In this document: piece after piece, positions 1,136 to 21,511 of the stretch
Position numbering within the stretch: the first letter of the stretch is position 1
How the letters are laid out: the number at the start of each line of letters is the position of its first letter
From: a virus
Lineage: Duplodnaviria > Heunggongvirae > Uroviricota > Caudoviricetes
Direction: 5' to 3' (one strand)
DNA length: 25,112 nucleotides
Virus record (IMG/VR): IMGVR_UViG_2703718778_000012
Program-made: the position numbers and the translations under genes
Notes under the pieces: generated by a model
Database searches by the model: none
Told to the model about the DNA's origin: nothing
What the model saw: the letters and a program-made list of their open reading frames with translations, nothing else

Positions 1136-2812
1136 CTAAGCAACATGTAGTTCATCGTTGGCGGAAGTGGCTGCTTTGCGCTCCTGCTCAATAGCTAGAG
1201 ACTCTCTATATTCTTTCGCCTCTGCAAACATTGTCCAGTGGGCGTTGATGTTCATGTCTTCAATAACTGATTTGATTTCTTTTAAATTTACGTTAAAAAA
1301 CTCTTTTCGTGAGTTAATTTTATTGACCTGCTTTTCGTTGAAAACTTTATGCAGATGGTTTTCTAATGATGGTGCATCATCACTATAAATCATCGCATGA
1401 ACATCGAACGAAAAAGGAACACTAGCATCTCCGAGTTCACGAACACGATCAAGTGGTTCAAGGCGGCGTGTCATTCCAATTTTATATACATCTTCGCCAA
1501 ATGAACCAATATTACTAATGATATAGACGTGGCCTGATCTGGTTTGTTGAGCCATAGAAATAGCTCGTTGATTTTTAGCTTCAGCTTCTTCATATTTTAA
1601 CTGTAGTTCAGCTATTTTTTGCTCTAAAGCTAAGCGTTGTTCTTCATTTGCAAGCATAAGTTCTTTCGTTGCTTTATTTATAGCTTGCTGAATAGCTTTT
1701 TCTTCTTTTTCAGCTTCTTTTATCGCTTTTTCATATTCTCTACGAGCTCTTTCCTCTTCACGAAGCTGTTCTTTAATCCTTCTTTGCTCTTCTTTTTCTT
1801 CGAGCATAATTTCATTAACTGCTACACCCCATTTTAGCTCGTTGAGTCTTGCCTGAAGATAGATGTCACTTATTTTTGCGGACCTAAAGGCAGAGCCATT
1901 GTAATTTACTAGTTGAAATGCATCTTTTATTTCTTGGGAAAGTTTTCCAAAATTGTTGTGTTTGACTTTTGATAAAATACTGTCAACTCTTCCATTGAAG
2001 GCATCCAAAACAAAGTTTATGGCAGTATTACGCCTGTTTTGCTCAACATAATCACACGAAGCAGCTTTATTAGTTTTTATTAATGATTTGGTTAACTCTC
2101 TGGCTTTTTGTAATTCCTTGCCTGCATCTGTAAATTCATAATTTTCTGCCAGCTCATCAAGTACACTACGGTTAGGGATGATCCATTCATCACCATAACC
2201 TTCAATTTTATTTTTCATTGATTTTGCAACTGCTTCATATTTTTCTGCAAACTCTTTAGCTTCATATGCTGAACCAGCAATCTCCTTTGCTCTTTCTTCT
2301 GCATCAGAAATAATTTTTACTGCATTGTCATTAGCATTTGAGATTAGCACATTTGCTTTATTATTAGCATTATCAAGACGTTCTTTGGCTTTCAGGCGTG
2401 CATCGCGAGCGTCTTTGGTGATTGCTATAGCTTCGCTATTAGCGTTGCTTATTGTCATCTGAGCTTGATAATTTGCTTCGTTTACTGTTTTAGCCGCCTT
2501 AATTTGGGCTTCATCTATTTTTTGCTTGGCTATTGAGTCCGCATTTTTTATCTTATTCTCTGCATCCATTACTGCGCTGTGCAATTCTTCGTATTGCCAC
2601 AATGGTGCTGCTCGCCCTTCAAGCTCTGATAATTCTCGTACGGTCTGTGCTAGTTTTTCTTGATTTTCAATCAGTTGGTTGGAAAGGGCTATGTTGTTAG
2701 CTGTCAGGTTATCTATAGCCGCTTTGTGTTTTTTACTTTGTTTAAATAATATTACAGCTAGAACAGGGGCGAGAAATGCTAATAAGAGTATAACGATGGC
2801 AAATGAATTCAT
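1136..2812 (-). CDS. Membrane-anchored coiled-coil protein with C-terminal GIY-YIG-like (T5orf172/DUF4041-type) nuclease domain
   Basis: 558-aa ORF. N-terminal hydrophobic helix (FAIVILLLAFLAPVLAVILF), about 350 aa of K/E/A-rich heptad-like sequence, then C-terminal GHVYIISNIGSFGEDVYKIGMTRR...E...FFNV, which fits a GIY-x(10-12)-YIG core with following conserved R/E/N. Strongly AT-rich compared with flanking int and cI. AAGGA Shine-Dalgarno 7 nt before the ATG; only 20 nt downstream of the cI stop. Confidence 0.65.
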   Translation of the reverse strand: MNSFAIVILLLAFLAPVLAVILFKQSKKHKAAIDNLTANNIALSNQLIENQEKLAQTVRELSELEGRAAPLWQYEELHSAVMDAENKIKNADSIAKQKIDEAQIKAAKTVNEANYQAQMTISNANSEAIAITKDARDARLKAKERLDNANNKANVLISNANDNAVKIISDAEERAKEIAGSAYEAKEFAEKYEAVAKSMKNKIEGYGDEWIIPNRSVLDELAENYEFTDAGKELQKARELTKSLIKTNKAASCDYVEQNRRNTAINFVLDAFNGRVDSILSKVKHNNFGKLSQEIKDAFQLVNYNGSAFRSAKISDIYLQARLNELKWGVAVNEIMLEEKEEQRRIKEQLREEERARREYEKAIKEAEKEEKAIQQAINKATKELMLANEEQRLALEQKIAELQLKYEEAEAKNQRAISMAQQTRSGHVYIISNIGSFGEDVYKIGMTRRLEPLDRVRELGDASVPFSFDVHAMIYSDDAPSLENHLHKVFNEKQVNKINSRKEFFNVNLKEIKSVIEDMNINAHWTMFAEAKEYRESLAIEQERKAATSANDELHVA

Positions 2813-2832: not shown

Positions 2833-3429
2833 TTAATTCGAGACTATTGTACTTCTTATACAAGCAACCACTTCAATATCAGAAAATGCACATTCAAAGC
2901 TATTCTCTGCTGTTGTAATTTTAATCATTCCTTTAGGAAGCCTTGTGATTTTTCGAATGGAATAGGTTCCGTCGATATTGATTAACCAGTTTCCATCAAG
3001 TACTTCAGAAAATTTTTGATCACAAATGTATGTGACGAGTCCATCCTGAACAACAATTGGTGATGAAAGGTTTGCAGGAAGAAATGATGAATCGAAGACA
3101 TATGAACCGTCTTCAATCATTTTGCCTGCGGCAAGGCGAAACTTAACAAGCTCTTCTGTAGCTGCTGTCAGCGAGCTTTGCTTAAGGCCTTGTCCGGTAG
3201 TTAACCATTTGAGGGAGGTTCCTGTTTCAAGAGCACATTGGATTATCCAGTCAGCAGGAAATGTATCCCGCAAATACCTGTTCGCTAGTGTGCTTTTTGA
3301 TACTTCCAAGTGATCAGCTAAAGCCTGTCGTGTCGTAAAGCCATAGGCTTCGACTAATCGCTCAATCGCAGCCTTACCACCTTTATTGGGATTTATTTTG
3401 ATCTCACTTGGGTACTTTGATGTTGACAT
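2833..3429 (-). CDS. cI: CI-type immunity repressor (phage 186 CI-like)
   Basis: 198 aa (186 CI is about 192 aa). N-terminal segment AYGF..RQALADHLEVSKSTLANRYLR......CALETGTSLKWLTTGQG resembles a 186 CI-type DNA-binding domain. Position between int and a divergent apl/cII operon matches P2/186 synteny. Confidence 0.75.
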   Translation of the reverse strand: MSTSKYPSEIKINPNKGGKAAIERLVEAYGFTTRQALADHLEVSKSTLANRYLRDTFPADWIIQCALETGTSLKWLTTGQGLKQSSLTAATEELVKFRLAAGKMIEDGSYVFDSSFLPANLSSPIVVQDGLVTYICDQKFSEVLDGNWLINIDGTYSIRKITRLPKGMIKITTAENSFECAFSDIEVVACIRSTIVSN

Positions 3430-9558: not shown

Positions 9559-10299
9559 TCAGTTTTCTTTGAATTTTTCACTTAATCGTTTCGTCAATAC
9601 TTCGACAGATTCTTTGCGACCGGAGAACAAGTCATTGACGACGTACTCCATAATCTCAAAAGCATCCTCAATGTCTTTGACTTTTACTTCATCGTAGGTA
9701 TGGCTTCCGGCATTTCCTAAAAATTTAATTGCCATAAGAGGTCTTGAAAACGATCCGTATAATTCAGGTAGCATCCCTAAACGGTGGTGTAGAGTTATGC
9801 GTTTGCCATTATCATTACGTTCAGCTACATCCATAGCGGTTAGCATTCTTTCAACTGAAATTCGAATTAGGTTTGCTGCTGCGCCAGGCTGTATTAGGAA
9901 AATGGAAAATGAGGCTTCAAGCGGTTCGGTAATTTCTTCTGGGCATTTTTCAGGTATTTCGAAAGGATGCAGTGATGGGTAAAAGGTGAAAGGTCTGTGC
10001 CATTGATAGTACTCAATATCATTTCTTTCTTCATCCCAACCTTGTTCCCATCCACTCTTACCAGTACAGGCCACAACTTCACCACATTGCATTCTTGAAC
10101 AGCGGGCCATGCAACTGAAAATAGATGAATCCATTTCTGGTTCAAACCAATCTTCACTGCGGAATTTTCGGGTATCATGTGTGTCATACGAGACGAAACT
10201 TTCTTTAATGATCTGTAGGGTTTTCTGATTGCAGTTAGGGCAGGGCCACTCAACCTGCATATCGTGGAAAAACGCACCAGAGAGCTTGTGCACAGTCAT
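9559..10299 (-). CDS. Hypothetical protein with N-terminal Cys-rich (zinc-ribbon-like) region and C-terminal alpha-helical domain (possibly DUF4145-like)
   Basis: 246-aa ORF, AT-rich relative to backbone. CPNCNQ ... CMARCSRMQCGEVVAC suggests a metal-binding module. The C-terminal half (AAANLIRISVERML...FLGNAGSH) is helical; the DUF4145 assignment is from memory only. Transcribed divergently from the HNH operon. Confidence 0.65.
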   Translation of the reverse strand: MTVHKLSGAFFHDMQVEWPCPNCNQKTLQIIKESFVSYDTHDTRKFRSEDWFEPEMDSSIFSCMARCSRMQCGEVVACTGKSGWEQGWDEERNDIEYYQWHRPFTFYPSLHPFEIPEKCPEEITEPLEASFSIFLIQPGAAANLIRISVERMLTAMDVAERNDNGKRITLHHRLGMLPELYGSFSRPLMAIKFLGNAGSHTYDEVKVKDIEDAFEIMEYVVNDLFSGRKESVEVLTKRLSEKFKEN

Positions 10300-10445
10300 T
10301 CTTTGTGTTCCTCATTTTTATGATTGGTAGGGATTGTATCTTCATACACGATTACAGTTGCATTAAAGATAAGCCATAGCAAGCTACTGGAAAAGAGACG
10401 AAACAGTTGGGCATATCAGATGTTTTTTCTTAAGGTAAGTTGTTG

Positions 10446-10546
10446 TGCATGCCTATACTGCATGAGATTGCATGATCGTTTGAGGATCGTTATTGCTAAG
10501 GCCCACCAGAACTGGCGGGCTTTTGCGTAGAGCATGCAGGTGCATG
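10446..10546. repeat. Cluster of five GCATG motifs, including the direct repeat TGCATGA-N3-TGCATGA
   Basis: TGCATG at 10446, 10459 and 10469; GCATGC at 10532; TGCATG at 10541. Lies between the 246-aa gene start and the cos-like sequence. Confidence 0.35.
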
Positions 10547-10569
10547 AAAACCACTACATAAAGCGGGCA

Positions 10570-10600
10570 GGCGTGGCGGGGATACGAGCGCGCGCTCACC
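10570..10600. other. cos: Candidate cos site (cohesive-end region)
   Basis: GGCGTGGCGGGGATACGAGCGCGCGCTCACC closely resembles the P2/186 cohesive-end region as I remember it (P2 GGCGAGGCGGGGAAAGCAC followed by TGCGCGCTGAC). Includes a perfect palindrome GAGCGCGCGCTC. This is a GC-rich island within AT-rich flanks. Confidence 0.5.
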
Positions 10601-10676
10601 ACAATTAGCAAGCTTGCTTATAGGGTTGTTCAGTAATAAATTAACATCCTAATTTCTATACTTTTAAGGTTAGTTC

Positions 10677-11372
10677 ATGGCTTGCAGTAGGGGAAAAGCT
10701 TCTCCAAACGCTAATACAGTTAGACGGCTTTTTGCCAGCTCAGGTGGCTTTTGCCAAAATCCACAATGCTTGCAACCTTTGTTTGTTGATGCTGGCGACA
10801 AAAATATAACAATTGGAGAACTTGCTCACATTTTTAGTGCCATTGATAATGGACCTAGAACCAATGCTGATCTAACTGATGAGCAGAGAGGTCATTTTGA
10901 CAACATTATTCTTCTATGTGCTAATTGCCATACGACAATTGATAAGGCAGAGGAACATTTTACTGATGAAATTATCCGTTCTTGGAAAAACGGCCATATT
11001 GATAAAATAAATGCAACCTTTGGTGTTAAAACATATGACAATCGAGAATCTGTTAGACAGGAGTTAGAAAAATACTTCAGAGAAAACAATACCATTTTTG
11101 TAACATATGGACCAACCCAAGAGAACAGCGTTGACCCTGAAAATCCAAATGCAGAAGTATGGTTAAGAAAAGTACAATCTCATATCTTACCCAACAATAG
11201 AAAAGTACAGCGACTGGTTGAACAAAACTATCACCTCATGAGTGAAGATGAGAAGAATGTTTTTTCAAAGCTTTGTGTTCATATAGATGACTTTGAATCA
11301 AAACATTTGGGCTTAACCGATGCTAATGGTAGTAGGTTTCCAGAAGCTGCATCTGAACTATTTATAGGATGA
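10677..11372 (+). CDS. HNH-family endonuclease
   Basis: 231 aa. GGFCQNPQC ... ELAHIFSAIDNGP ... DNIILLCANCHTTIDK contains the His / Asn / Cys-x2-Cys-His elements of an HNH beta-beta-alpha-metal fold. AT-rich. First gene of a three-gene operon with overlapping stop/start codons. Confidence 0.75.
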   Translation: MACSRGKASPNANTVRRLFASSGGFCQNPQCLQPLFVDAGDKNITIGELAHIFSAIDNGPRTNADLTDEQRGHFDNIILLCANCHTTIDKAEEHFTDEIIRSWKNGHIDKINATFGVKTYDNRESVRQELEKYFRENNTIFVTYGPTQENSVDPENPNAEVWLRKVQSHILPNNRKVQRLVEQNYHLMSEDEKNVFSKLCVHIDDFESKHLGLTDANGSRFPEAASELFIG

Positions 11373-12028
11373 ATCCAATGAGCATAAATGCGAGTGAAGG
11401 CTATATTTCATGGATGGCAGGAAAATTGCAAGAAAATAAATGTGTCGAAAATATAGAGGTGATAGGTGATGGTACTTTAGTGATTAATACTACACAGGGT
11501 GACACCTATTTGATCGGGGCAATCAATACTGGCCGGATAACATGTCCTGAGATAAATGAATACCTAGACAATAAAAAAATTGATTTTCTATCAGTCAAGG
11601 GAGGTGTTGAATTTATCTCTGGTGATGCAATGAGATTACTAGAACAAAAGAAAATAGGAGTGGGTTCATTTGGGCATATTGCATCTTCTTTAAGAGCTAA
11701 TAATCCGCTTGAGCATCTTGATAAAGAGCATTTGTTTATAAATAGAGTGTTCAATCAACATTCACATGTAAGCTCTGTAGAGCGAGAAACCAACAAAAAA
11801 TATAGACTTAAAAGACGTGGCTTGGCGGACTTAGTTATTATCGCTGCGAATGATTATGATATGACAGCGGGTTCTGTAAGAGATGCGATAGGGTTGCATG
11901 GCAATTGTGATGTTGTTTTTTCCTCCAATCCTAATGGACGATTGACGACTCAGGCAAAAGAGGCTGCTCAAAGTATCGGGGTGGAGCTTTACAAGTTGGG
12001 TGATTTATTACGAAGAATTTCACGGTAG
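11369..12028 (+). CDS. Hypothetical protein (middle gene of HNH/NTase operon)
   Basis: 219-aa ORF whose start overlaps the HNH stop (ATGA). No motif I can assign with confidence; contains RVFNQH (R-x4-H), which is weakly reminiscent of a HEPN motif. Confidence 0.65.
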   Translation: MNPMSINASEGYISWMAGKLQENKCVENIEVIGDGTLVINTTQGDTYLIGAINTGRITCPEINEYLDNKKIDFLSVKGGVEFISGDAMRLLEQKKIGVGSFGHIASSLRANNPLEHLDKEHLFINRVFNQHSHVSSVERETNKKYRLKRRGLADLVIIAANDYDMTAGSVRDAIGLHGNCDVVFSSNPNGRLTTQAKEAAQSIGVELYKLGDLLRRISR

Positions 12029-17989: not shown

Positions 17990-18454
17990 ATGAAGTTTGT
18001 TGCGCCAGAACAGGCACCGGAACAGGCGGAAATCATCAGGAATACGCCGTTCTGGCCTGATGTGGACCTGTCGGAGTTTCGCAGCGTGATGCGCACTGAC
18101 GGCACGGTGACGCAGCCGCGTTTAAAGCAGGTTGCGCTGTCGGCAATTTCGGAGGTCAACGCAGAGCTGTATGAGTTTCGCAGACGCCAGCAGATGCTGG
18201 GGTATGCCTCGCTGGCAGAGGTTCCGGCGGAACAGCTGGACGGCAAAAGTGAGCGCATTCAGCACTATTTCAACGCGGTTTACTGCTGGGCACGCGCCAT
18301 GCTCAACGAACGTTACCAGGACTATGACGCCACGGCGTCCGGTGTGAAGCGGGGCGAGGAACTGGCGGAAGCAAGCGGTGATTTGTGGCGTGACGCCCGC
18401 TGGGCCATCAGCCGGGTGCAGGATGCGCCGCACTGCACAGTGGAGCTTATCTGA
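17990..18454 (+). CDS. L: Head completion / stabilisation protein (P2 gpL family)
   Basis: 154 aa from the ATG at 17990 with AGGAG upstream. Synteny after M. The ORF track's N-terminal extension from 17927 is discounted. Confidence 0.8.
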   Translation: MKFVAPEQAPEQAEIIRNTPFWPDVDLSEFRSVMRTDGTVTQPRLKQVALSAISEVNAELYEFRRRQQMLGYASLAEVPAEQLDGKSERIQHYFNAVYCWARAMLNERYQDYDATASGVKRGEELAEASGDLWRDARWAISRVQDAPHCTVELI

Positions 18455-18657
18455 TGAAAGTGCGTGCGTATCAGTATGACACGGTGGACGCGCTTTGCTG
18501 GCGTCATTACGGGCGCACGCAGGGTGTCACGGAGCAGGTACTGAAGGCAAATCCGGGGCTTGCCGAATACGGCCCCTTTTTACCTCACGGGCTGCAGGTG
18601 GAGCTGCCGGACATTCCGACCACCACCACCGTGCAGACCGTCCAGCTATGGGACTGA
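18454..18657 (+). CDS. X: Tail protein X (P2 gpX family)
   Basis: 67 aa. MKVRAYQYDTVDALCWRHYGRTQGVTEQVLKANPGLAEYGPFLPHG..VELPD matches P2 gpX (67 aa). Confidence 0.85.
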   Translation: MKVRAYQYDTVDALCWRHYGRTQGVTEQVLKANPGLAEYGPFLPHGLQVELPDIPTTTTVQTVQLWD

Positions 18658-18660
18658 ATT

Positions 18661-18876
18661 ATGACGCTTGAGCGAATCAGCGCCTTTATCACGTATTGCA
18701 TCGCCGTCGTGCTGGCCTGGCTGGGCGATTTGTCCATCAAGGATGCCTCAACGCTGGGCGGCCTGATGATTGGTGTGCTGATGCTGGCTATCAACTGGTA
18801 CTACAAACACAAAGCCTACCAGCTTCTGCGCGACGGGCAGATCTCGCGGGAGGACTATGAATCCATCAATCGTTAA
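18661..18876 (+). CDS. Holin (two-TM, pinholin-like)
   Basis: 71 aa with two hydrophobic helices (ITYCIAVVLAWLG; LGGLMIGVLMLAINWYY) and a charged C-terminal tail. Sits immediately upstream of and overlapping the endolysin gene. Confidence 0.6.
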   Translation: MTLERISAFITYCIAVVLAWLGDLSIKDASTLGGLMIGVLMLAINWYYKHKAYQLLRDGQISREDYESINR

Positions 18877-19372
18877 ACGCTGCCTTGTCGGGGCTGTGCT
18901 GGCTATTGCTGCCACGCTGCCGGGTTTTCAGCAGCTTCACACCTCCGTGGAGGGACTGAAACTGATCGCCGATTACGAAGGCTGTCGTCTGCAGCCGTAT
19001 CAGTGCAGCGCGGGTGTCTGGACCGACGGCATTGGTAATACATCGGGCGTCATTCCCGGCAAAACAATCACGGAGCGACAGGCAGCAGAAGGGCTGATCT
19101 CCAACGTGCTGCGTGTGGAGCGGGCGCTGGAAAGGTGTGTGAAGCAACAGCCACCGCAGAAGGTGTATGACGCTACGGTGTCGTTTGCCTTCAACGTGGG
19201 GACGGGCAATGCCTGTAGTTCCACGCTGGTGAAATTGCTCAATCAGCGGTGCTGGGCGGATGCGTGCCGACAGTTGCCGCGCTGGGTGTATGTAAAAGGT
19301 GTGTTTAATCAGGGGCTGGATAACCGCCGTGCGCGGGAGATGGCCTGGTGCCTTAAAGGAGCTGGACTATGA
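18857..19372 (+). CDS. K: SAR endolysin (phage lysozyme, T4-lysozyme/GH24-like)
   Basis: 171 aa. N-terminal signal-anchor-release-like segment (KRCLVGAVLAIAATLPGF) followed by YEGCRLQPYQCSAGVWTDGIGNT, a lysozyme catalytic region of the E-x8-(D/C)-x5-T type. GGAGGA Shine-Dalgarno upstream. Confidence 0.8.
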   Translation: MNPSIVKRCLVGAVLAIAATLPGFQQLHTSVEGLKLIADYEGCRLQPYQCSAGVWTDGIGNTSGVIPGKTITERQAAEGLISNVLRVERALERCVKQQPPQKVYDATVSFAFNVGTGNACSSTLVKLLNQRCWADACRQLPRWVYVKGVFNQGLDNRRAREMAWCLKGAGL

Positions 19373-19797
19373 CACGTGCGCTGGCGGTAGTGGCGGCGCT
19401 GGCACTCGTTGCGCTGGGCTGGCAGTCGTGGCGGCTTAACAGCGCCAGCCATACCATCGAAACGCAGCGCGCGGCGCTGAAAAGTAAAGCGCACGAACTA
19501 ACGAAGAAAAATAGCCAGCTGATCAGTCTGTCCATTCTGGCTGAAACCAACAACCGGGAGCAGGCGCGGCTCTACGCCGAAGCAGAACAGACCAGTGCAC
19601 TGCTGAGACAACGACAACATCGGATTGAGGAACTGAAACGTGAGAACGAGGATTTACGCCGCTGGGCTGATACTCCTTTGCCTGCTGACATTATCCGGCT
19701 GCGGGAACGTCCGACACTCACCGGAGGTGCAGCTTACCGTCAGTGGTTGTCCGCGAGTGACGCCGTGTCGGCTGGATCAGGCAACGTCGCGCACTAA
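19369..19797 (+). CDS. lysB: Rz-like inner-membrane spanin (P2 LysB analogue)
   Basis: 142 aa. N-terminal transmembrane helix (ALAVVAALALVALGW) followed by a coiled-coil periplasmic domain. Directly after the endolysin gene. Confidence 0.7.
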   Translation: MTRALAVVAALALVALGWQSWRLNSASHTIETQRAALKSKAHELTKKNSQLISLSILAETNNREQARLYAEAEQTSALLRQRQHRIEELKRENEDLRRWADTPLPADIIRLRERPTLTGGAAYRQWLSASDAVSAGSGNVAH

Positions 19798-19930
19798 CGG
19801 TGATCTGAACGCGTTGCTGGATGAAACGGAGGCCGCCTGGGCGGTCTGTGCAGACAAAGTGGACATGATTATTGCGTGTCAGGAGCGAAACAGTGAACAA
19901 ACCACAATCCCTGCGCCACGCCCTCAATAA
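19640..19930 (+). CDS. lysC: Rz1-like outer-membrane lipoprotein spanin (P2 LysC analogue), embedded in an alternate frame
   Basis: Signal peptide ending in lipobox LTLSG|C (MRTRIYAAGLILLCLLTLSGC). Embedded out of frame within the 3' part of lysB, as is typical for Rz1. The exact start and functional length are uncertain. Confidence 0.55.
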   Translation: MRTRIYAAGLILLCLLTLSGCGNVRHSPEVQLTVSGCPRVTPCRLDQATSRTNGDLNALLDETEAAWAVCADKVDMIIACQERNSEQTTIPAPRPQ

Positions 19931-20324
19931 AGCGGTGCCTTATGTCCGCAATAACCCGGACAAACTGCATCTGTTTGTGGATAACGGTTCGCTGGTTGCC
20001 ACGGGGGCCAGCTCCATGTCATGGGAGTACCGTTACACCCTGAACGTGGTGATTGAGGATTTCAGCGGCGACCAGAATCTGCTGATGGCCCCGGTTTTGC
20101 TGTGGCTGAGGGATAACCAGCCCGATGCTATCAATAACCTGGCGTTACGGGAAAAGCTATTCACCTTTGAGGTGGATATTCTGCGCAACGATGTCTGTGA
20201 TATCAGCCTGAACCTGCAACTGACGGAGCGTGTGCTGGTCAGCACTGACGGCAGTGTGTCGAGCGTTGAAGCTGTAGCGGAACCTGATGCACCTGAAGAA
20301 ATGTGGACGGTGAAACGTGGCTGA
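19893..20324 (+). CDS. R: Tail completion protein R (P2 gpR family)
   Basis: GTG at 19893 preceded by AGGAG (7-nt spacer). VNKPQSLRHAL...NPDKLHLFVDNGS...RYTLNVVIEDFSGD..LL.APVLLWLRDNQPD parallels P2 gpR. Confidence 0.85.
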   Translation: MNKPQSLRHALNKAVPYVRNNPDKLHLFVDNGSLVATGASSMSWEYRYTLNVVIEDFSGDQNLLMAPVLLWLRDNQPDAINNLALREKLFTFEVDILRNDVCDISLNLQLTERVLVSTDGSVSSVEAVAEPDAPEEMWTVKRG

Positions 20325-20763
20325 ACTGCAGAAGGTGGACGACTGGCTGAGTGCCTTGCTGGCGAATCTGGAACCAGCCACGAGAAGCCGCATGATGCGC
20401 CAGCTGGCGCAGGAACTGCGCCGGACACAGCAGCAGAATATCAGGATGCAGCGCAATCCAGATGGCAGCAGTTATGAACCGCGCAGGGTAACAGCACGTA
20501 GCAAGAAGGGGCGCATCAAACGTCAGATGTTTGCAAAGCTGCGCACCACCAAATACCTGAAAACCGCCGCCAGCGCCGACTCTGCCTGCGTACAGTTTGA
20601 AAGTAAGGTGCAGCGCATTGCCCGCGTTCACCATTATGGCCTGCGCGATCGCGTCAGCCGCAAAGGACCGGAAGTGCGTTACGCAGAGCGTCGTTTGTTG
20701 GGTCTTAATGGTGAGTCTTACGTTCTAACTCTTGATATATTGAATAGATTCCTTCTGTCTTGA
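20317..20763 (+). CDS. S: Tail completion protein S (P2 gpS family)
   Basis: 148 aa. ...LAQELRRTQQQNIRMQRNPDGSSYEPRRVTARSKKGRIKRQMF...VQRIARVHHYGLRD.VSR.GPEVRY parallels P2 gpS. GTG start overlaps the R stop. The last roughly 18 codons are AT-rich and overlap the convergent cargo gene. Confidence 0.85.
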   Translation: MAELQKVDDWLSALLANLEPATRSRMMRQLAQELRRTQQQNIRMQRNPDGSSYEPRRVTARSKKGRIKRQMFAKLRTTKYLKTAASADSACVQFESKVQRIARVHHYGLRDRVSRKGPEVRYAERRLLGLNGESYVLTLDILNRFLLS

Positions 20764-21511
20764 ATTCACCATATGCCCAATGAATTGCATTTTTTTGTTC
20801 AGTCAGAATATATTTCCTAACTTTTTTAGAATAGTGAATGGTCAGTATAAAACCCAAAGAAATCCATAATAGAATAAATATGGTTGTTGGGGCAAAGGAA
20901 TAGATAAAGAATTTGTCTTTAACGAAATTCTTGACTTCTTCATCAATGTAAGCATTCCCTTCATCAGTGGTTAGTAGTTTACAAAGAATTTCTTTATGTT
21001 CGATAGTTAATGATTTGTACTTCTCTGTACTGGCAGAGGATGACTCTTCGCAATCATCCTTTGATATTTCCCAATCAGGAGTGGTTAATATTGTAGCTGC
21101 AGTCGCCAGTTTTTTTGACATATAAAATGATTCACCGGACTTTATCCAATAAAGCAATGTGCTATTTGGTGGGGTTCTAATGGCTTGGATGAAAACTGGA
21201 CCAAAAATATAAATTGCATACAAAAAAAGAAGTGAAAAGAGAACCGTGATTGATTTTTCAGCCCATGTGATAGTAGGCAGCCTTTTTAATGATATTCGTA
21301 TAAGAAAAAAATTTAATATAAACGCAGGTATTCCTGATTTTTTCAAAATTACATCATGAGATTTTCTATATTTGAATAGTGCTCTTATAACTATCGTCAC
21401 CAAAGTTATAACAGCTCCAATAATGGAAATCCATGCGGCAAGTGCCGCTGCCGGGGTGTTTAAAAATTCAGCATTAAATATATTAGAACTTATTGGATTC
21501 ATAACACTCAT
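20705..21511 (-). CDS. Multi-pass membrane protein (cargo gene, unknown function)
   Basis: 268-aa ORF, strongly AT-rich. At least three hydrophobic helices (AALAAWISIIGAVITLVTIVI; SITVLFSLLFLYAIYIFGPVFI; FIYSFAPTTIFILLWISLGFILTI) flank a roughly 80-aa charged soluble segment. GGTGG Shine-Dalgarno 4 nt before the ATG. Inserted between S and V, antisense to the late operon. Confidence 0.7.
   Translation of the reverse strand: MSVMNPISSNIFNAEFLNTPAAALAAWISIIGAVITLVTIVIRALFKYRKSHDVILKKSGIPAFILNFFLIRISLKRLPTITWAEKSITVLFSLLFLYAIYIFGPVFIQAIRTPPNSTLLYWIKSGESFYMSKKLATAATILTTPDWEISKDDCEESSSASTEKYKSLTIEHKEILCKLLTTDEGNAYIDEEVKNFVKDKFFIYSFAPTTIFILLWISLGFILTIHYSKKVRKYILTEQKNAIHWAYGEFKTEGIYSIYQELERKTHH

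Follow-up and report, generated by a model that had tools for sequence, protein, structure and literature searches.

The lysis genes of the window (the whole stretch of DNA that was analyzed, 25,112 nucleotides) lie at positions 18661–19930, all on the + strand, and comprise a holin, a GH24 lysozyme and the LysB/LysC spanins. Taken together, the analyses make it probable that the cassette joins an endolysin of the P1 Lyz type, that is, a signal-anchor-release (SAR) enzyme, to a class II holin of the HP1 family (most likely a pinholin) and a LysB/LysC pair. An earlier note, made from the letters of this DNA, had listed a 71-aa holin with two transmembrane domains (TMDs), a lysozyme and an Rz/Rz1 pair, and all are present where it placed them. 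The gene content, the families to which the products belong, the catalytic motif, the conservation of cysteines and the fold of the endolysin identify the usual complement of lysis genes of a P2-like E. coli prophage. The prophage belongs to the Peduoviridae and is Elveevirus-like; the cassette is the lysis module of its late operon.

The cassette type is already known. About one fifth of complete E. coli genomes (1038 of 5426) contain it, the exact endolysin protein occurs on 95 contigs from E. coli assemblies, and phages Cartapus, 4LV2017 and KP12 share 95–97% nucleotide identity with the window across the whole cassette. As a discovery it carries little weight: the SAR endolysin class (P1 Lyz, R21, Lyz103) was defined between 2004 and 2010, and both P2-like and closely related examples have been published. 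The P2-like example, HP1, was characterized in 2020 (PMC7312051), and a report on the relative KP12, whose cassette has ∼95% nucleotide identity, followed in 2023 (PMC9902359).

Family and fold of the endolysin

The endolysin gene (18857–19372) encodes a GH24/T4-type lysozyme of 171 aa, a putative SAR enzyme of the P1 Lyz subclass, for which the standard annotation is merely ‘lysozyme’. It matches PF00959 with 135.1 bits (cut-off 22.3), covering profile positions 2–125 of 125, and its best solved relative is P1 Lyz (PDB 1XJT; HMMER E 5.7e-26). The AF2 model (pLDDT 94.2) is closest in fold to active P1 Lyz, 1XJT (TM 0.85), as against 0.57 for 1XJU, the secreted inactive form; the top Foldseek matches are P1 Lyz, R21, DLP12 RrrD and P22 lysozyme. 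The predicted fold is that of a T4-like lysozyme.

A fusion protein, represented by 296-aa ‘endolysin+PF28015’ entries, was considered and rejected: those inspected read through frameshift junctions into LysA. Such entries are absent from the window, nearly all of them form single-member clusters, and they are probably assembly or pseudogene artefacts.

Catalytic motif and cysteines

The catalytic motif was located at 18977–19024 by regular expression, by direct reading and by alignment with P1 Lyz. It reads E41-G-C43-RLQPYQ-C50-SAGVW-T56, giving the E-x8-C-x5-T (E41, C50, T56) that had been reported from the letters alone, together with a partner, Cys43, two residues after the Glu (E+2). The codons are at 18977–18979 (E41), 18983–18985 (C43), 19004–19006 (C50) and 19022–19024 (T56). 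In the HMMER alignment with 1XJT all four residues fall, residue for residue, within the EGC...C...T block of P1 Lyz, with Cys and not Asp at the catalytic position; the motif is therefore not a chance match. We take the matching residues of P1 Lyz to be E42, C44, C51 and T57, and C9, C43 and C50 presumably correspond to its C13, C44 and C51. C9, E41, C43, C50 and T56 do not vary among 14 SAR homologues (35–56% identity; P1 Lyz and HP1 Lys included), and E41 and T56 are invariant throughout an alignment of 91 sequences.

The earlier note had drawn attention to Cys at the position where Asp is expected. The Cys is present, but it is no anomaly: it is a documented alternative form of the triad, E-8x-C/D-5x-T, and P1 Lyz has been described both as carrying this variant and as being regulated through its catalytic Cys (PMC3556154). 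Among non-redundant representatives with a catalytic Cys, the E+2 Cys occurs in all 14 with an N-terminal TMD, as against 19 of the 39 soluble ones (Fisher p = 3.7e-4). Because the pair is found in many soluble homologues too, E+2 Cys and catalytic Cys by themselves are not diagnostic of SAR regulation. A Cys inside the TMD is present in 12 of the 14 TMD-bearing representatives, and the other two look N-terminally truncated.

A catalytic Cys, accompanied by one at E+2 and another in the SAR segment, points to the LyzP1 subclass, whose active-site Cys would be held in a disulfide until isomerization releases it. Caging in the strict sense, that of Lyz103, is reportedly different (Kuty et al., 2010): the enzyme has no catalytic Cys, and its inhibitory disulfide joins cysteines on either side of the catalytic Glu. 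The suggestion of caging of a ‘Lyz103/P1 Lyz type’ had thus merged two subclasses; its P1 half stands, and its Lyz103 half does not, the Glu-flanking pattern being absent. Position 50 is Cys, residue 40 is Tyr, and C9 is the only Cys upstream of E41. Steric regulation of the R21 type (E-x8-D-x5-T, with a SAR segment devoid of Cys) was likewise rejected, both Cys50 and Cys9 being present.

Alignment with relatives also brought out an eighth, unpaired cysteine, Cys132 (TGC, 19250–19252). Residue 132 is Cys in none of 78 IMG/VR endolysins encoded beside an identical holin: it is Arg (CGC) in 73 and Leu in five. The Cys132 variant is rare yet present in E. coli assemblies (the 95 contigs mentioned above), and would represent an extra free thiol.

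The N-terminal segment

The evidence for the putative SAR region (18857–18928) comes from hydropathy and from conservation of the Cys9 column. The protein begins MNPSIVKR-CLVGAVLAIAATLPGF: a positively charged n-region with K7 and R8 is followed by 16 uncharged hydrophobic residues, C9–F24, the codon for Cys9 being 18881–18883. The SAR-like, Cys-containing hydrophobic N-terminus of the earlier note is thus recovered. Half of the residues in the segment (50%) are G, A, S, T or C, and its mean Kyte-Doolittle value is 2.11 (R21, 1.99; HP1 Lys, 2.14); at 16 aa the stretch is shorter than in P1 Lyz or R21. By analogy with these enzymes the lysozyme is likely to be a SAR-type GH24 endolysin, exported by Sec, tethered without cleavage and then released. 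Since the SAR segment carries a Cys, thiol-disulfide regulation fits. Sec-dependent export, tethering without cleavage, and release on depolarization or by a pinholin constitute the definitive SAR test (PMC9239132). Cys9 was also considered as a lipoprotein cysteine, an idea that was rejected since the V-K-R before it does not form a lipobox.

Two other readings of the N-terminus have to be weighed. The first places the true start at the GTG at codon 14, which would yield a soluble cytoplasmic enzyme of 157/158 aa that leaves through holin holes. The RefSeq record of 4LV2017 and the GenBank record of 813R9 do annotate the endolysin 39 nt shorter, whereas Cartapus and the PGAP annotations of E. 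coli have the long form. The GGGAGGA Shine-Dalgarno sequence stands ahead of the ATG at 18857, and the n-region and Cys are retained down to 35% identity. Moreover, codons 1–13 are kept as protein in diverged phages, the changes being synonymous: comparison with a diverged Yersinia phage gives seven identical, four synonymous and one non-synonymous codon, and this protein-level conservation supports ATG 18857 as the start. We give the GTG hardly any credence. The choice matters in practice: the several public phage records that start the endolysin at the internal GTG thereby lose the SAR domain and Cys9.

According to the other reading the ATG is the start and the segment acts as a conventional Sec signal peptide, cleaved after A16-I17-A18, the product being a soluble periplasmic lysozyme restrained in some other way, as is Lys44 of fOg44. 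The A-I-A|A at residues 16–18 could be a signal peptidase I site and, with the K7/R8 n-region and short h-region, resembles an 18-residue signal peptide; furthermore, SAR domains are often called signal peptides by tools of the SignalP kind (PMC7312051, PMC3765740). However, the AXA is not conserved in homologues, which have S-I-V, A-L-M or T-I-V, while Cys9 just upstream is invariant, and cleavage would remove the sole thiol able to free C50. AF2, moreover, packs residues 11–30 against the enzyme body at pLDDT >95, as in full-length active P1 Lyz. The earlier note had named two outcomes that would tell against its proposal, an Asp at the catalytic position and an N-terminal segment that is cleaved or cytoplasmic; neither check refuted it, the alignment giving Cys and the model a segment folded into the enzyme. 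A cleaved signal peptide is in our view very improbable, and we retain the SAR reading of the full-length, 171-aa protein. Work that uses such enzymes as antibacterials should take into account that the N-terminal segment and the three cysteines are probably regulatory.

The holin

The 71-aa holin (18661–18876) is a class II holin of the HP1 holin family (PF16080; TC 1.E.7) and a putative pinholin; its 3′ end overlaps the 5′ end of the endolysin gene by 20 nt. Hydropathy, the only means by which TMDs were assigned here, places TMD1, which contains Cys13, at residues 6–22 and TMD2, the weaker helix (mean Kyte-Doolittle 1.30), at residues 29–48, followed by a charged C-terminal tail. It scores 36.7 bits against PF16080 (cut-off 28.8) and E 1.9e-26 against the PHROG 20 holin, and carries the NCBI label ‘HP1 family phage holin’. 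Pairwise comparison with the HP1 holin gives 21% identity at E 0.19 (BLASTP), and hhalign, with the holin family aligned to the HP1 holin sequence by itself, a probability of 5%; assignment to the HP1 family therefore rests on the Pfam profile and not on pairwise similarity. With S21, BLASTP returned no alignment, and the score against the S21 holin profile, PF04971, was 23.2 bits, below the cut-off of 26; hhalign with S21 gave a probability of 65% and E 6e-5, which suggests remote homology.

No dual start was found in the holin: there is a single Met, and an ATG further upstream, at 18648, opens a different frame (MGLNYDA*). Relatives from Yersinia and Erwinia phages have the corresponding ATG in frame (MGLxM...).

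That the holin ‘would then be’ a pinholin had been argued in the earlier note from its partner. This step does not hold, since the SAR endolysin of P1 works with a canonical holin (PMC6116005), but the proposal itself is plausible on two other grounds, membership of the HP1 holin family and the consistent pairing of relatives with SAR endolysins. HP1 Lys is Sec-dependent, and the HP1 holin has been characterized as a pinholin acting with a SAR endolysin: it is lethal without lysis, causes no leakage of beta-galactosidase and is needed for phage release (PMC7312051). The pairing was seen in eight distant holin relatives from Yersinia, Erwinia, Pseudomonas and Haemophilus phages (∼21–37% pairwise identity), all eight adjoined by an endolysin with an N-terminal hydrophobic segment and none by a soluble one.

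It is possible, if rather unlikely, that the holin is instead a canonical class II holin that makes large holes and triggers depolarization, hole size being irrelevant, as for LydA with P1 Lyz. TMD1 is robustly hydrophobic, with a mean Kyte-Doolittle value of 2.12 and a summed Hessa dG of −0.56, where the SAR-like TMD1 of S21 has a mean of 0.52; this, the sub-threshold PF04971 score and the missing dual start all agree with a canonical holin, and exported endolysins may still go with such holins (PMC6116005). Against this, the founder of PF16080 acted as a pinholin (PMC7312051), the diverse relatives stand beside SAR endolysins in eight cases out of eight, and there is the remote profile similarity to S21. 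A pinholin remains the reading that we prefer.

Spanins and LysA

LysB (19369–19797, 142 aa) is an Rz-like i-spanin with an N-terminal TMD, identified by TIGR03495 (175.5 bits; cut-off 92.75) and PHROG 89. LysC (19640–19930, 96 aa, GTG start) is an Rz1-like o-spanin lipoprotein with the lipobox L-S-G-C21; it scores 120.3 bits against NF038368, P2_Rz1 (cut-off 27), and 56.3 bits against PF23793, LysC. The lysC gene begins within lysB in the +1 frame and extends 133 nt beyond the lysB stop, an overlapped architecture, and the two products constitute a P2-type two-component spanin.

As had been noted from the sequence, no LysA-like gene (NF038378 / PHROG 162) lies between the endolysin and lysB: the stop of the one overlaps the start of the other (ATGA). 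At that site Klebsiella phage 4LV2017 and Escherichia phage 813R9 have a LysA-like gene of 125 aa with multiple TMDs. Among 80 IMG/VR loci with 100% identical holins, a LysA-like membrane protein stands between endolysin and LysB in 51 and is lacking in 24. Cassettes with neither LysA nor a dual start, and hence with no recognizable antiholin, are common in nature. The lysA+/lysA− polymorphism, found next to identical holins, offers a tidy system in which to study the role of LysA together with a SAR-type endolysin; should the LysA of sister phages target either the holin or the SAR endolysin, whether as antiholin or in a releasin-like manner, the polymorphism would amount to a natural experiment on lysis timing.

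A model for lysis

Export, tethering, disulfide isomerization and hole size can be pictured by analogy with the characterized systems. The endolysin would be exported by the host Sec system and anchored in the inner membrane by its short, weakly hydrophobic N-terminal segment. In the tethered enzyme the active-site Cys50 would be locked in a disulfide with Cys43, and Cys9, placed where the membrane segment meets the cytoplasm, would be out of reach. On depolarization of the membrane the SAR segment would exit the bilayer and fold onto the enzyme body, and the thiol of Cys9 could then attack the C43–C50 disulfide, forming C9–C43 and freeing the catalytic C50. Depolarization by the 71-aa HP1-family holin would set the timing of lysis, most likely through small holes of the pinholin kind, and LysB and LysC would afterwards disrupt the outer membrane.

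A further idea, which we judge quite improbable, is that the window represents a natural minimal P2-type SAR cassette, defined by the lack of LysA and of a dual-start antiholin, by a holin whose hydrophobicity pattern, with strong TMD1 and weak TMD2, is opposite to that of S21, and by the extra Cys132, with TMD2 perhaps the mobile segment. For the HP1 holin, an active N-in/C-out form in which TMD2 is mobile has been proposed (PMC7312051).

Comparison with known systems

The pair S21/R21 of phage 21 resembles the present cassette in having a class II holin of 71 aa, predicted to be N-in/C-in, upstream of and overlapping a SAR lysozyme. The components differ: R21 has a catalytic Asp and no regulatory cysteines, its regulation being steric; the TMD1 of S21 is a SAR domain rich in Gly, Ala and Ser, and S21 also has a dual-start antiholin, whereas the holin here has neither such a TMD1 nor a dual start.

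P1 Lyz shares with the endolysin the GH24 fold, E-x8-C-x5-T, the E+2 Cys and a SAR Cys in aligned columns. Identity, however, is 35–37%, and the uncharged SAR stretch is 16 residues here versus ∼20 in P1. After the FNVG motif both P1 and HP1 have an 11-residue insertion that is missing from this endolysin, which in its place has a covarying pair of cysteines, C94/C120. P1 employs the canonical holin LydA and an antiholin, in contrast to the HP1-family class II holin of the window.

Haemophilus phage HP1, also of the Peduoviridae, has the same order of holin, overlapping SAR lysozyme and LysB-like gene, and its holin belongs to PF16080. The three cysteines recur in HP1 Lys, as does an uncharged N-terminal stretch of 16 residues, and a dual start and a known antiholin are missing from both holins. 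The HP1 holin is longer (78 aa, with a longer C-tail), and its weaker helix is TMD1, whereas here it is TMD2.

Closest of all are Escherichia phage Cartapus and Klebsiella phages 4LV2017 and KP12: their holins are 98.6–100% identical, and seven cysteines of the endolysin are shared; relatives mostly have Arg where the endolysin of the window has Cys132. Most relatives of the Elveevirus type have a LysA-like gene and a different LysB N-terminus, whereas the window, like Cartapus, is without LysA. The endolysin of Klebsiella phage KP12, KP12.peg.319, has been published as a SAR endolysin (PMC9902359).

Composition of the lysis cassette

Direct reading of window 18661–19930 recovered every feature that the earlier note had described there. 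The holin (18661–18876; 71 aa) does contain two predicted transmembrane domains (TMDs), as hydrophobic segments at residues 6–22 and 29–48, and ends in a charged C-terminal tail. It overlaps by 20 nt the endolysin gene (18857–19372; 171 aa), which is preceded by a GGGAGGA ribosome-binding site. The endolysin begins MNPSIVKR and continues with 16 uncharged residues (CLVGAVLAIAATLPGF), the hydrophobic, Cys-containing N-terminus (Cys9) that had been proposed, and its catalytic block, E41-G-C43-RLQPYQ-C50-SAGVW-T56, conforms to the reported E-x8-C-x5-T (E41/C50/T56). LysB (19369–19797) and LysC (19640–19930; lipobox LSGC) match the P2 spanins at equivalog level and show the overlapped architecture. 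The start of LysB overlaps the endolysin stop (ATGA), leaving no space upstream of the spanin pair for a lysA; the absence of that gene had been correctly noted.

The endolysin is of the P1 Lyz kind

The endolysin is a GH24 lysozyme (PF00959, 135 bits) and, among solved structures, is closest to phage P1 Lyz (1XJT; E 5.7e-26). In the HMMER alignment the EGC...C...T block of P1 Lyz lies opposite E41, C43, C50 and T56, and we take its counterparts to be E42, C44, C51 and T57. The signal-anchor-release (SAR) endolysin R21 (3HDE) is a weaker match than P1 Lyz and has Asp at the second catalytic position. Alignment to P1 Lyz does therefore place a Cys where the catalytic Asp was expected; this replacement is the established mark of P1 Lyz-like enzymes and no anomaly.

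The suggested mechanism, disulfide caging of a ‘Lyz103/P1 Lyz type’, mixes two mechanisms. According to what Kuty et al. 2010 reportedly found, the active-site Cys of LyzP1 is covalently blocked; Lyz103 is said to have no catalytic Cys and to be ‘caged’ by a disulfide that joins cysteines on either side of the catalytic Glu. In the window endolysin the residue preceding E41 is Tyr and the second flanking Cys is absent. Because the catalytic Cys50 is present and the flanking pair is not, the P1 Lyz part of the label stands and the Lyz103 part does not: judged on sequence, the enzyme belongs to the LyzP1 subclass.

An alignment of the window endolysin with P1 Lyz, Lys of the P2-like Haemophilus phage HP1 and 11 representatives (35–56% identity, each with an N-terminal hydrophobic segment) left C9, E41, C43, Y48, C50, A52, T56, G58, G60 and G153 invariant and C165 almost so. 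Among the catalytic-Cys homologues in a set of non-redundant representatives, out of 1.84 billion cluster representatives searched, all 14 that carry an N-terminal TMD have the E+2 Cys, as do 19 of the 39 that are soluble (Fisher p = 3.7e-4). Since the E+2 and catalytic cysteines are common in soluble relatives too, these two are not diagnostic by themselves, unlike the triple that includes a TMD Cys. The TMD Cys occurs in 12 of the 14, always toward the N-terminal, cytoplasm-proximal end of the TMD, and the other two start within the hydrophobic stretch and look truncated.

The remaining cysteines differ in their distribution. C94 (19136–19138) and C120 (19214–19216) covary inside the enterobacterial subfamily and may form an additional structural disulfide; neither is present in P1 Lyz or HP1 Lys, where 11 residues are inserted behind the FNVG motif instead. 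C137 and C165 are more widely conserved, P1 Lyz and R21 included. Codon 132 (19250–19252) reads TGC, so that Cys stands in place of the Arg (CGC) or Leu of relatives and gives a putatively thiol-regulated periplasmic enzyme an unpaired eighth cysteine. Cys132 is found in none of 78 IMG/VR endolysins adjoining an identical holin, yet is present on 95 E. coli contigs.

The N-terminus of the endolysin

The hydrophobic stretch is short, and 50% of its 16 residues are Gly, Ala, Ser, Thr or Cys. HP1 Lys likewise has ‘a stretch of 16 uncharged residues’; HP1 Lys alone lysed E. coli, and HP1 phage release was suppressed by azide (PMC7312051). That the segment is instead a cleaved signal peptide seems highly improbable: an A-I-A/A motif is a possible signal peptidase I site, but it is unconserved among homologues while the upstream Cys9 is invariant, and cleavage would remove the sole thiol capable of freeing C50. 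In the AlphaFold2 model (pLDDT 94.2) residues 11–30 form two short helices on the enzyme body (pLDDT > 95), and the fold matches full-length, active P1 Lyz (1XJT; TM 0.85, 173 columns) far more closely than it does the secreted, inactive form (1XJU; TM 0.57). With these residues packed and the match 1XJT-like, the modelled segment behaves as part of the mature enzyme, like that of P1 Lyz. A different reading is found in RefSeq 4LV2017 (a Klebsiella phage) and GenBank 813R9 (an Escherichia phage), where the endolysin starts at an internal GTG, codon 14 (loci L003 and L002, 1958–2470); this start would drop the n-region and Cys9 of the putative SAR domain. However, codons 1–13 compared with a diverged Yersinia phage comprise 7 identical, 4 synonymous and 1 non-synonymous, so that the protein is conserved, and even homologues at 35% identity keep the n-region and Cys; the shorter version of the gene is therefore very probably an annotation error. 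The endolysin of Erwinia phage ENT90 is recorded as a fragment of 86 aa, although a complete ORF for a P1-type SAR lysozyme exists there.

Presence and absence of lysA

In 4LV2017, 813R9 and the Klebsiella phage KP12 a 125-aa multi-TMD gene annotated LysA (NF038378, PHROG 162) lies between endolysin and LysB. Because the endolysin C-terminus (QGAN vs KGAGL) and the first ∼45 LysB residues vary along with it, the difference is a module swap and not a simple deletion. At 80 IMG/VR loci the holin is identical; the LysA-like gene is present at 51 of them, and at 24 the endolysin is followed directly by LysB, as in the window: the lysA-less cassette is a common natural variant.

Loci related to 19350–19372 also yield dozens of 296-aa database ‘proteins’ (P0006, P0015 and others) joining endolysin and LysA-like membrane protein (PF00959 + PF28015). 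A real fusion was considered and rejected: nearly all are single-member clusters, those inspected have frameshift junctions, and they are probably assembly errors or pseudogenes. P0015 is present on 30 contigs.

Is the holin a pinholin?

The evidence on the proposed pinholin divides, and we lean towards that reading with some reserve. The window holin scores 36.7 bits on the HP1 holin family (PF16080; cut-off 28.8) and 23.2 bits, under the cut-off of 26, on that of the phage 21 pinholin S21 (PF04971). BLASTP found no match between it and S21; a 24-homologue holin profile aligns to S21 over residues 2–51 (65% probability, E 6e-5), with a 6-residue gap exactly at the SAGSAG stretch of S21 TMD1. 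The S21 sequence used is a valid comparator, as it scores 122 bits across the full PF04971 profile. Compared pairwise, the window and HP1 holins are weakly similar (E 0.19). In HP1 the holin proved lethal but not lytic, let no beta-galactosidase leak out and was indispensable to phage release; the authors read it as a pinholin that works with a SAR endolysin and lacks both a dual start and an antiholin (PMC7312051). Eight distant relatives of the window holin were compared: that of HP1 (21% pairwise identity) and seven tblastn matches (∼28–37% identity) from Yersinia phages (two types), Erwinia phages EtG and ENT90 and two Pseudomonas Autographiviridae. All eight lie directly upstream of a lysozyme with an N-terminal hydrophobic segment (five of the Cys type, three of the Asp, R21-like type), as expected of a holin unable to release a soluble enzyme.

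Against this, P1 pairs its SAR endolysin with a canonical holin (PMC6116005), and such an enzyme thus does not require a pinholin. TMD1 of the window holin is a strong helix (mean Kyte-Doolittle 2.12, vs 0.52 in S21), and TMD2 is weaker (1.30). No dual start was found in the window holin: the ATG at 18648, inside the 3′ end of gpX, is not in the holin frame and encodes MGLNYDA and a stop (18648–18671). In the Yersinia and Erwinia relatives, by contrast, the equivalent ATG is in frame with the holin, and the resulting N-termini (MGLKM.../MGLTM...) are reminiscent of dual-start holin/antiholin motifs; an ancestral antiholin start may have been lost through a difference in register of 1 nt.

Prophage setting and cargo islands

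The window is a P2-like prophage: integrase, CI repressor, Dam-type methylase, gpA, portal and terminase are followed by a late operon in the order gpM-gpL-gpX-holin-endolysin-LysB/LysC-gpR-gpS. Between integrase (1–1053) and CI repressor (2833–3429) an AT-rich island (GC 35–39%) encodes a 558-aa protein (1136–2812, minus strand) with Pfam T5orf172/MUG113 and DUF4041 domains that strongly matches PD-Lambda-1, a protein of anti-phage defence (PADLOC E 3.6e-120). A second AT-rich island, of cargo genes (9559–12028; GC 34–43%), between gpA and the portal gene, holds a minus-strand 246-aa DUF4145 protein weakly matching PD-T7-4 (2e-5) and two plus-strand genes, one (10677–11372) with an HNH-like N-terminus and a PADLOC match to PDC-M68A (E 2.3e-29), the other (11369–12028) of no family and with its start overlapping the stop of the first. 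Located in a P2 hotspot, the pair (10677–12028) is a candidate for a defence system of two genes. A 268-aa multi-TMD DUF6216 protein (20705–21511, minus strand; AT-rich, GC 35–42%) with no PADLOC, PHROG or NCBIfam match is encoded between gpS and gpV, at the P2 orf30 position; Escherichia phage Cartapus and 813R9 carry other, unannotated genes at this spot, and for this reason it looks like a moron or cargo locus.

Comparison with known cassettes

Window 18400–20000 is 97.4% identical to Cartapus, which with 4LV2017 is classified in the genus Elveevirus, 95–97% identical to many Klebsiella and Escherichia Peduoviridae, and 100% identical to chromosomal prophages of E. coli STEC17-183 and JNEC-KY179. 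Among 5426 complete E. coli genomes, 1038 match the cassette, its genes being labelled by PGAP as ‘HP1 family phage holin’, ‘lysozyme’, ‘LysB’ and ‘LysC’; the exact endolysin occurs on 95 public contigs and the holin on >1000. What remains mildly interesting is the lysA+/lysA- polymorphism, the holin TMD hydrophobicity reversed relative to S21, Cys132 and the mis-annotated starts. The P2-type cassette of KP12 (endolysin KP12.peg.319) is ∼95% identical to that of the window at the nucleotide level, and the paper that describes KP12.peg.319 as a SAR endolysin also discusses a pinholin partner (PMC9902359). The finding is a correct reading of a well-understood, very common and already known cassette.
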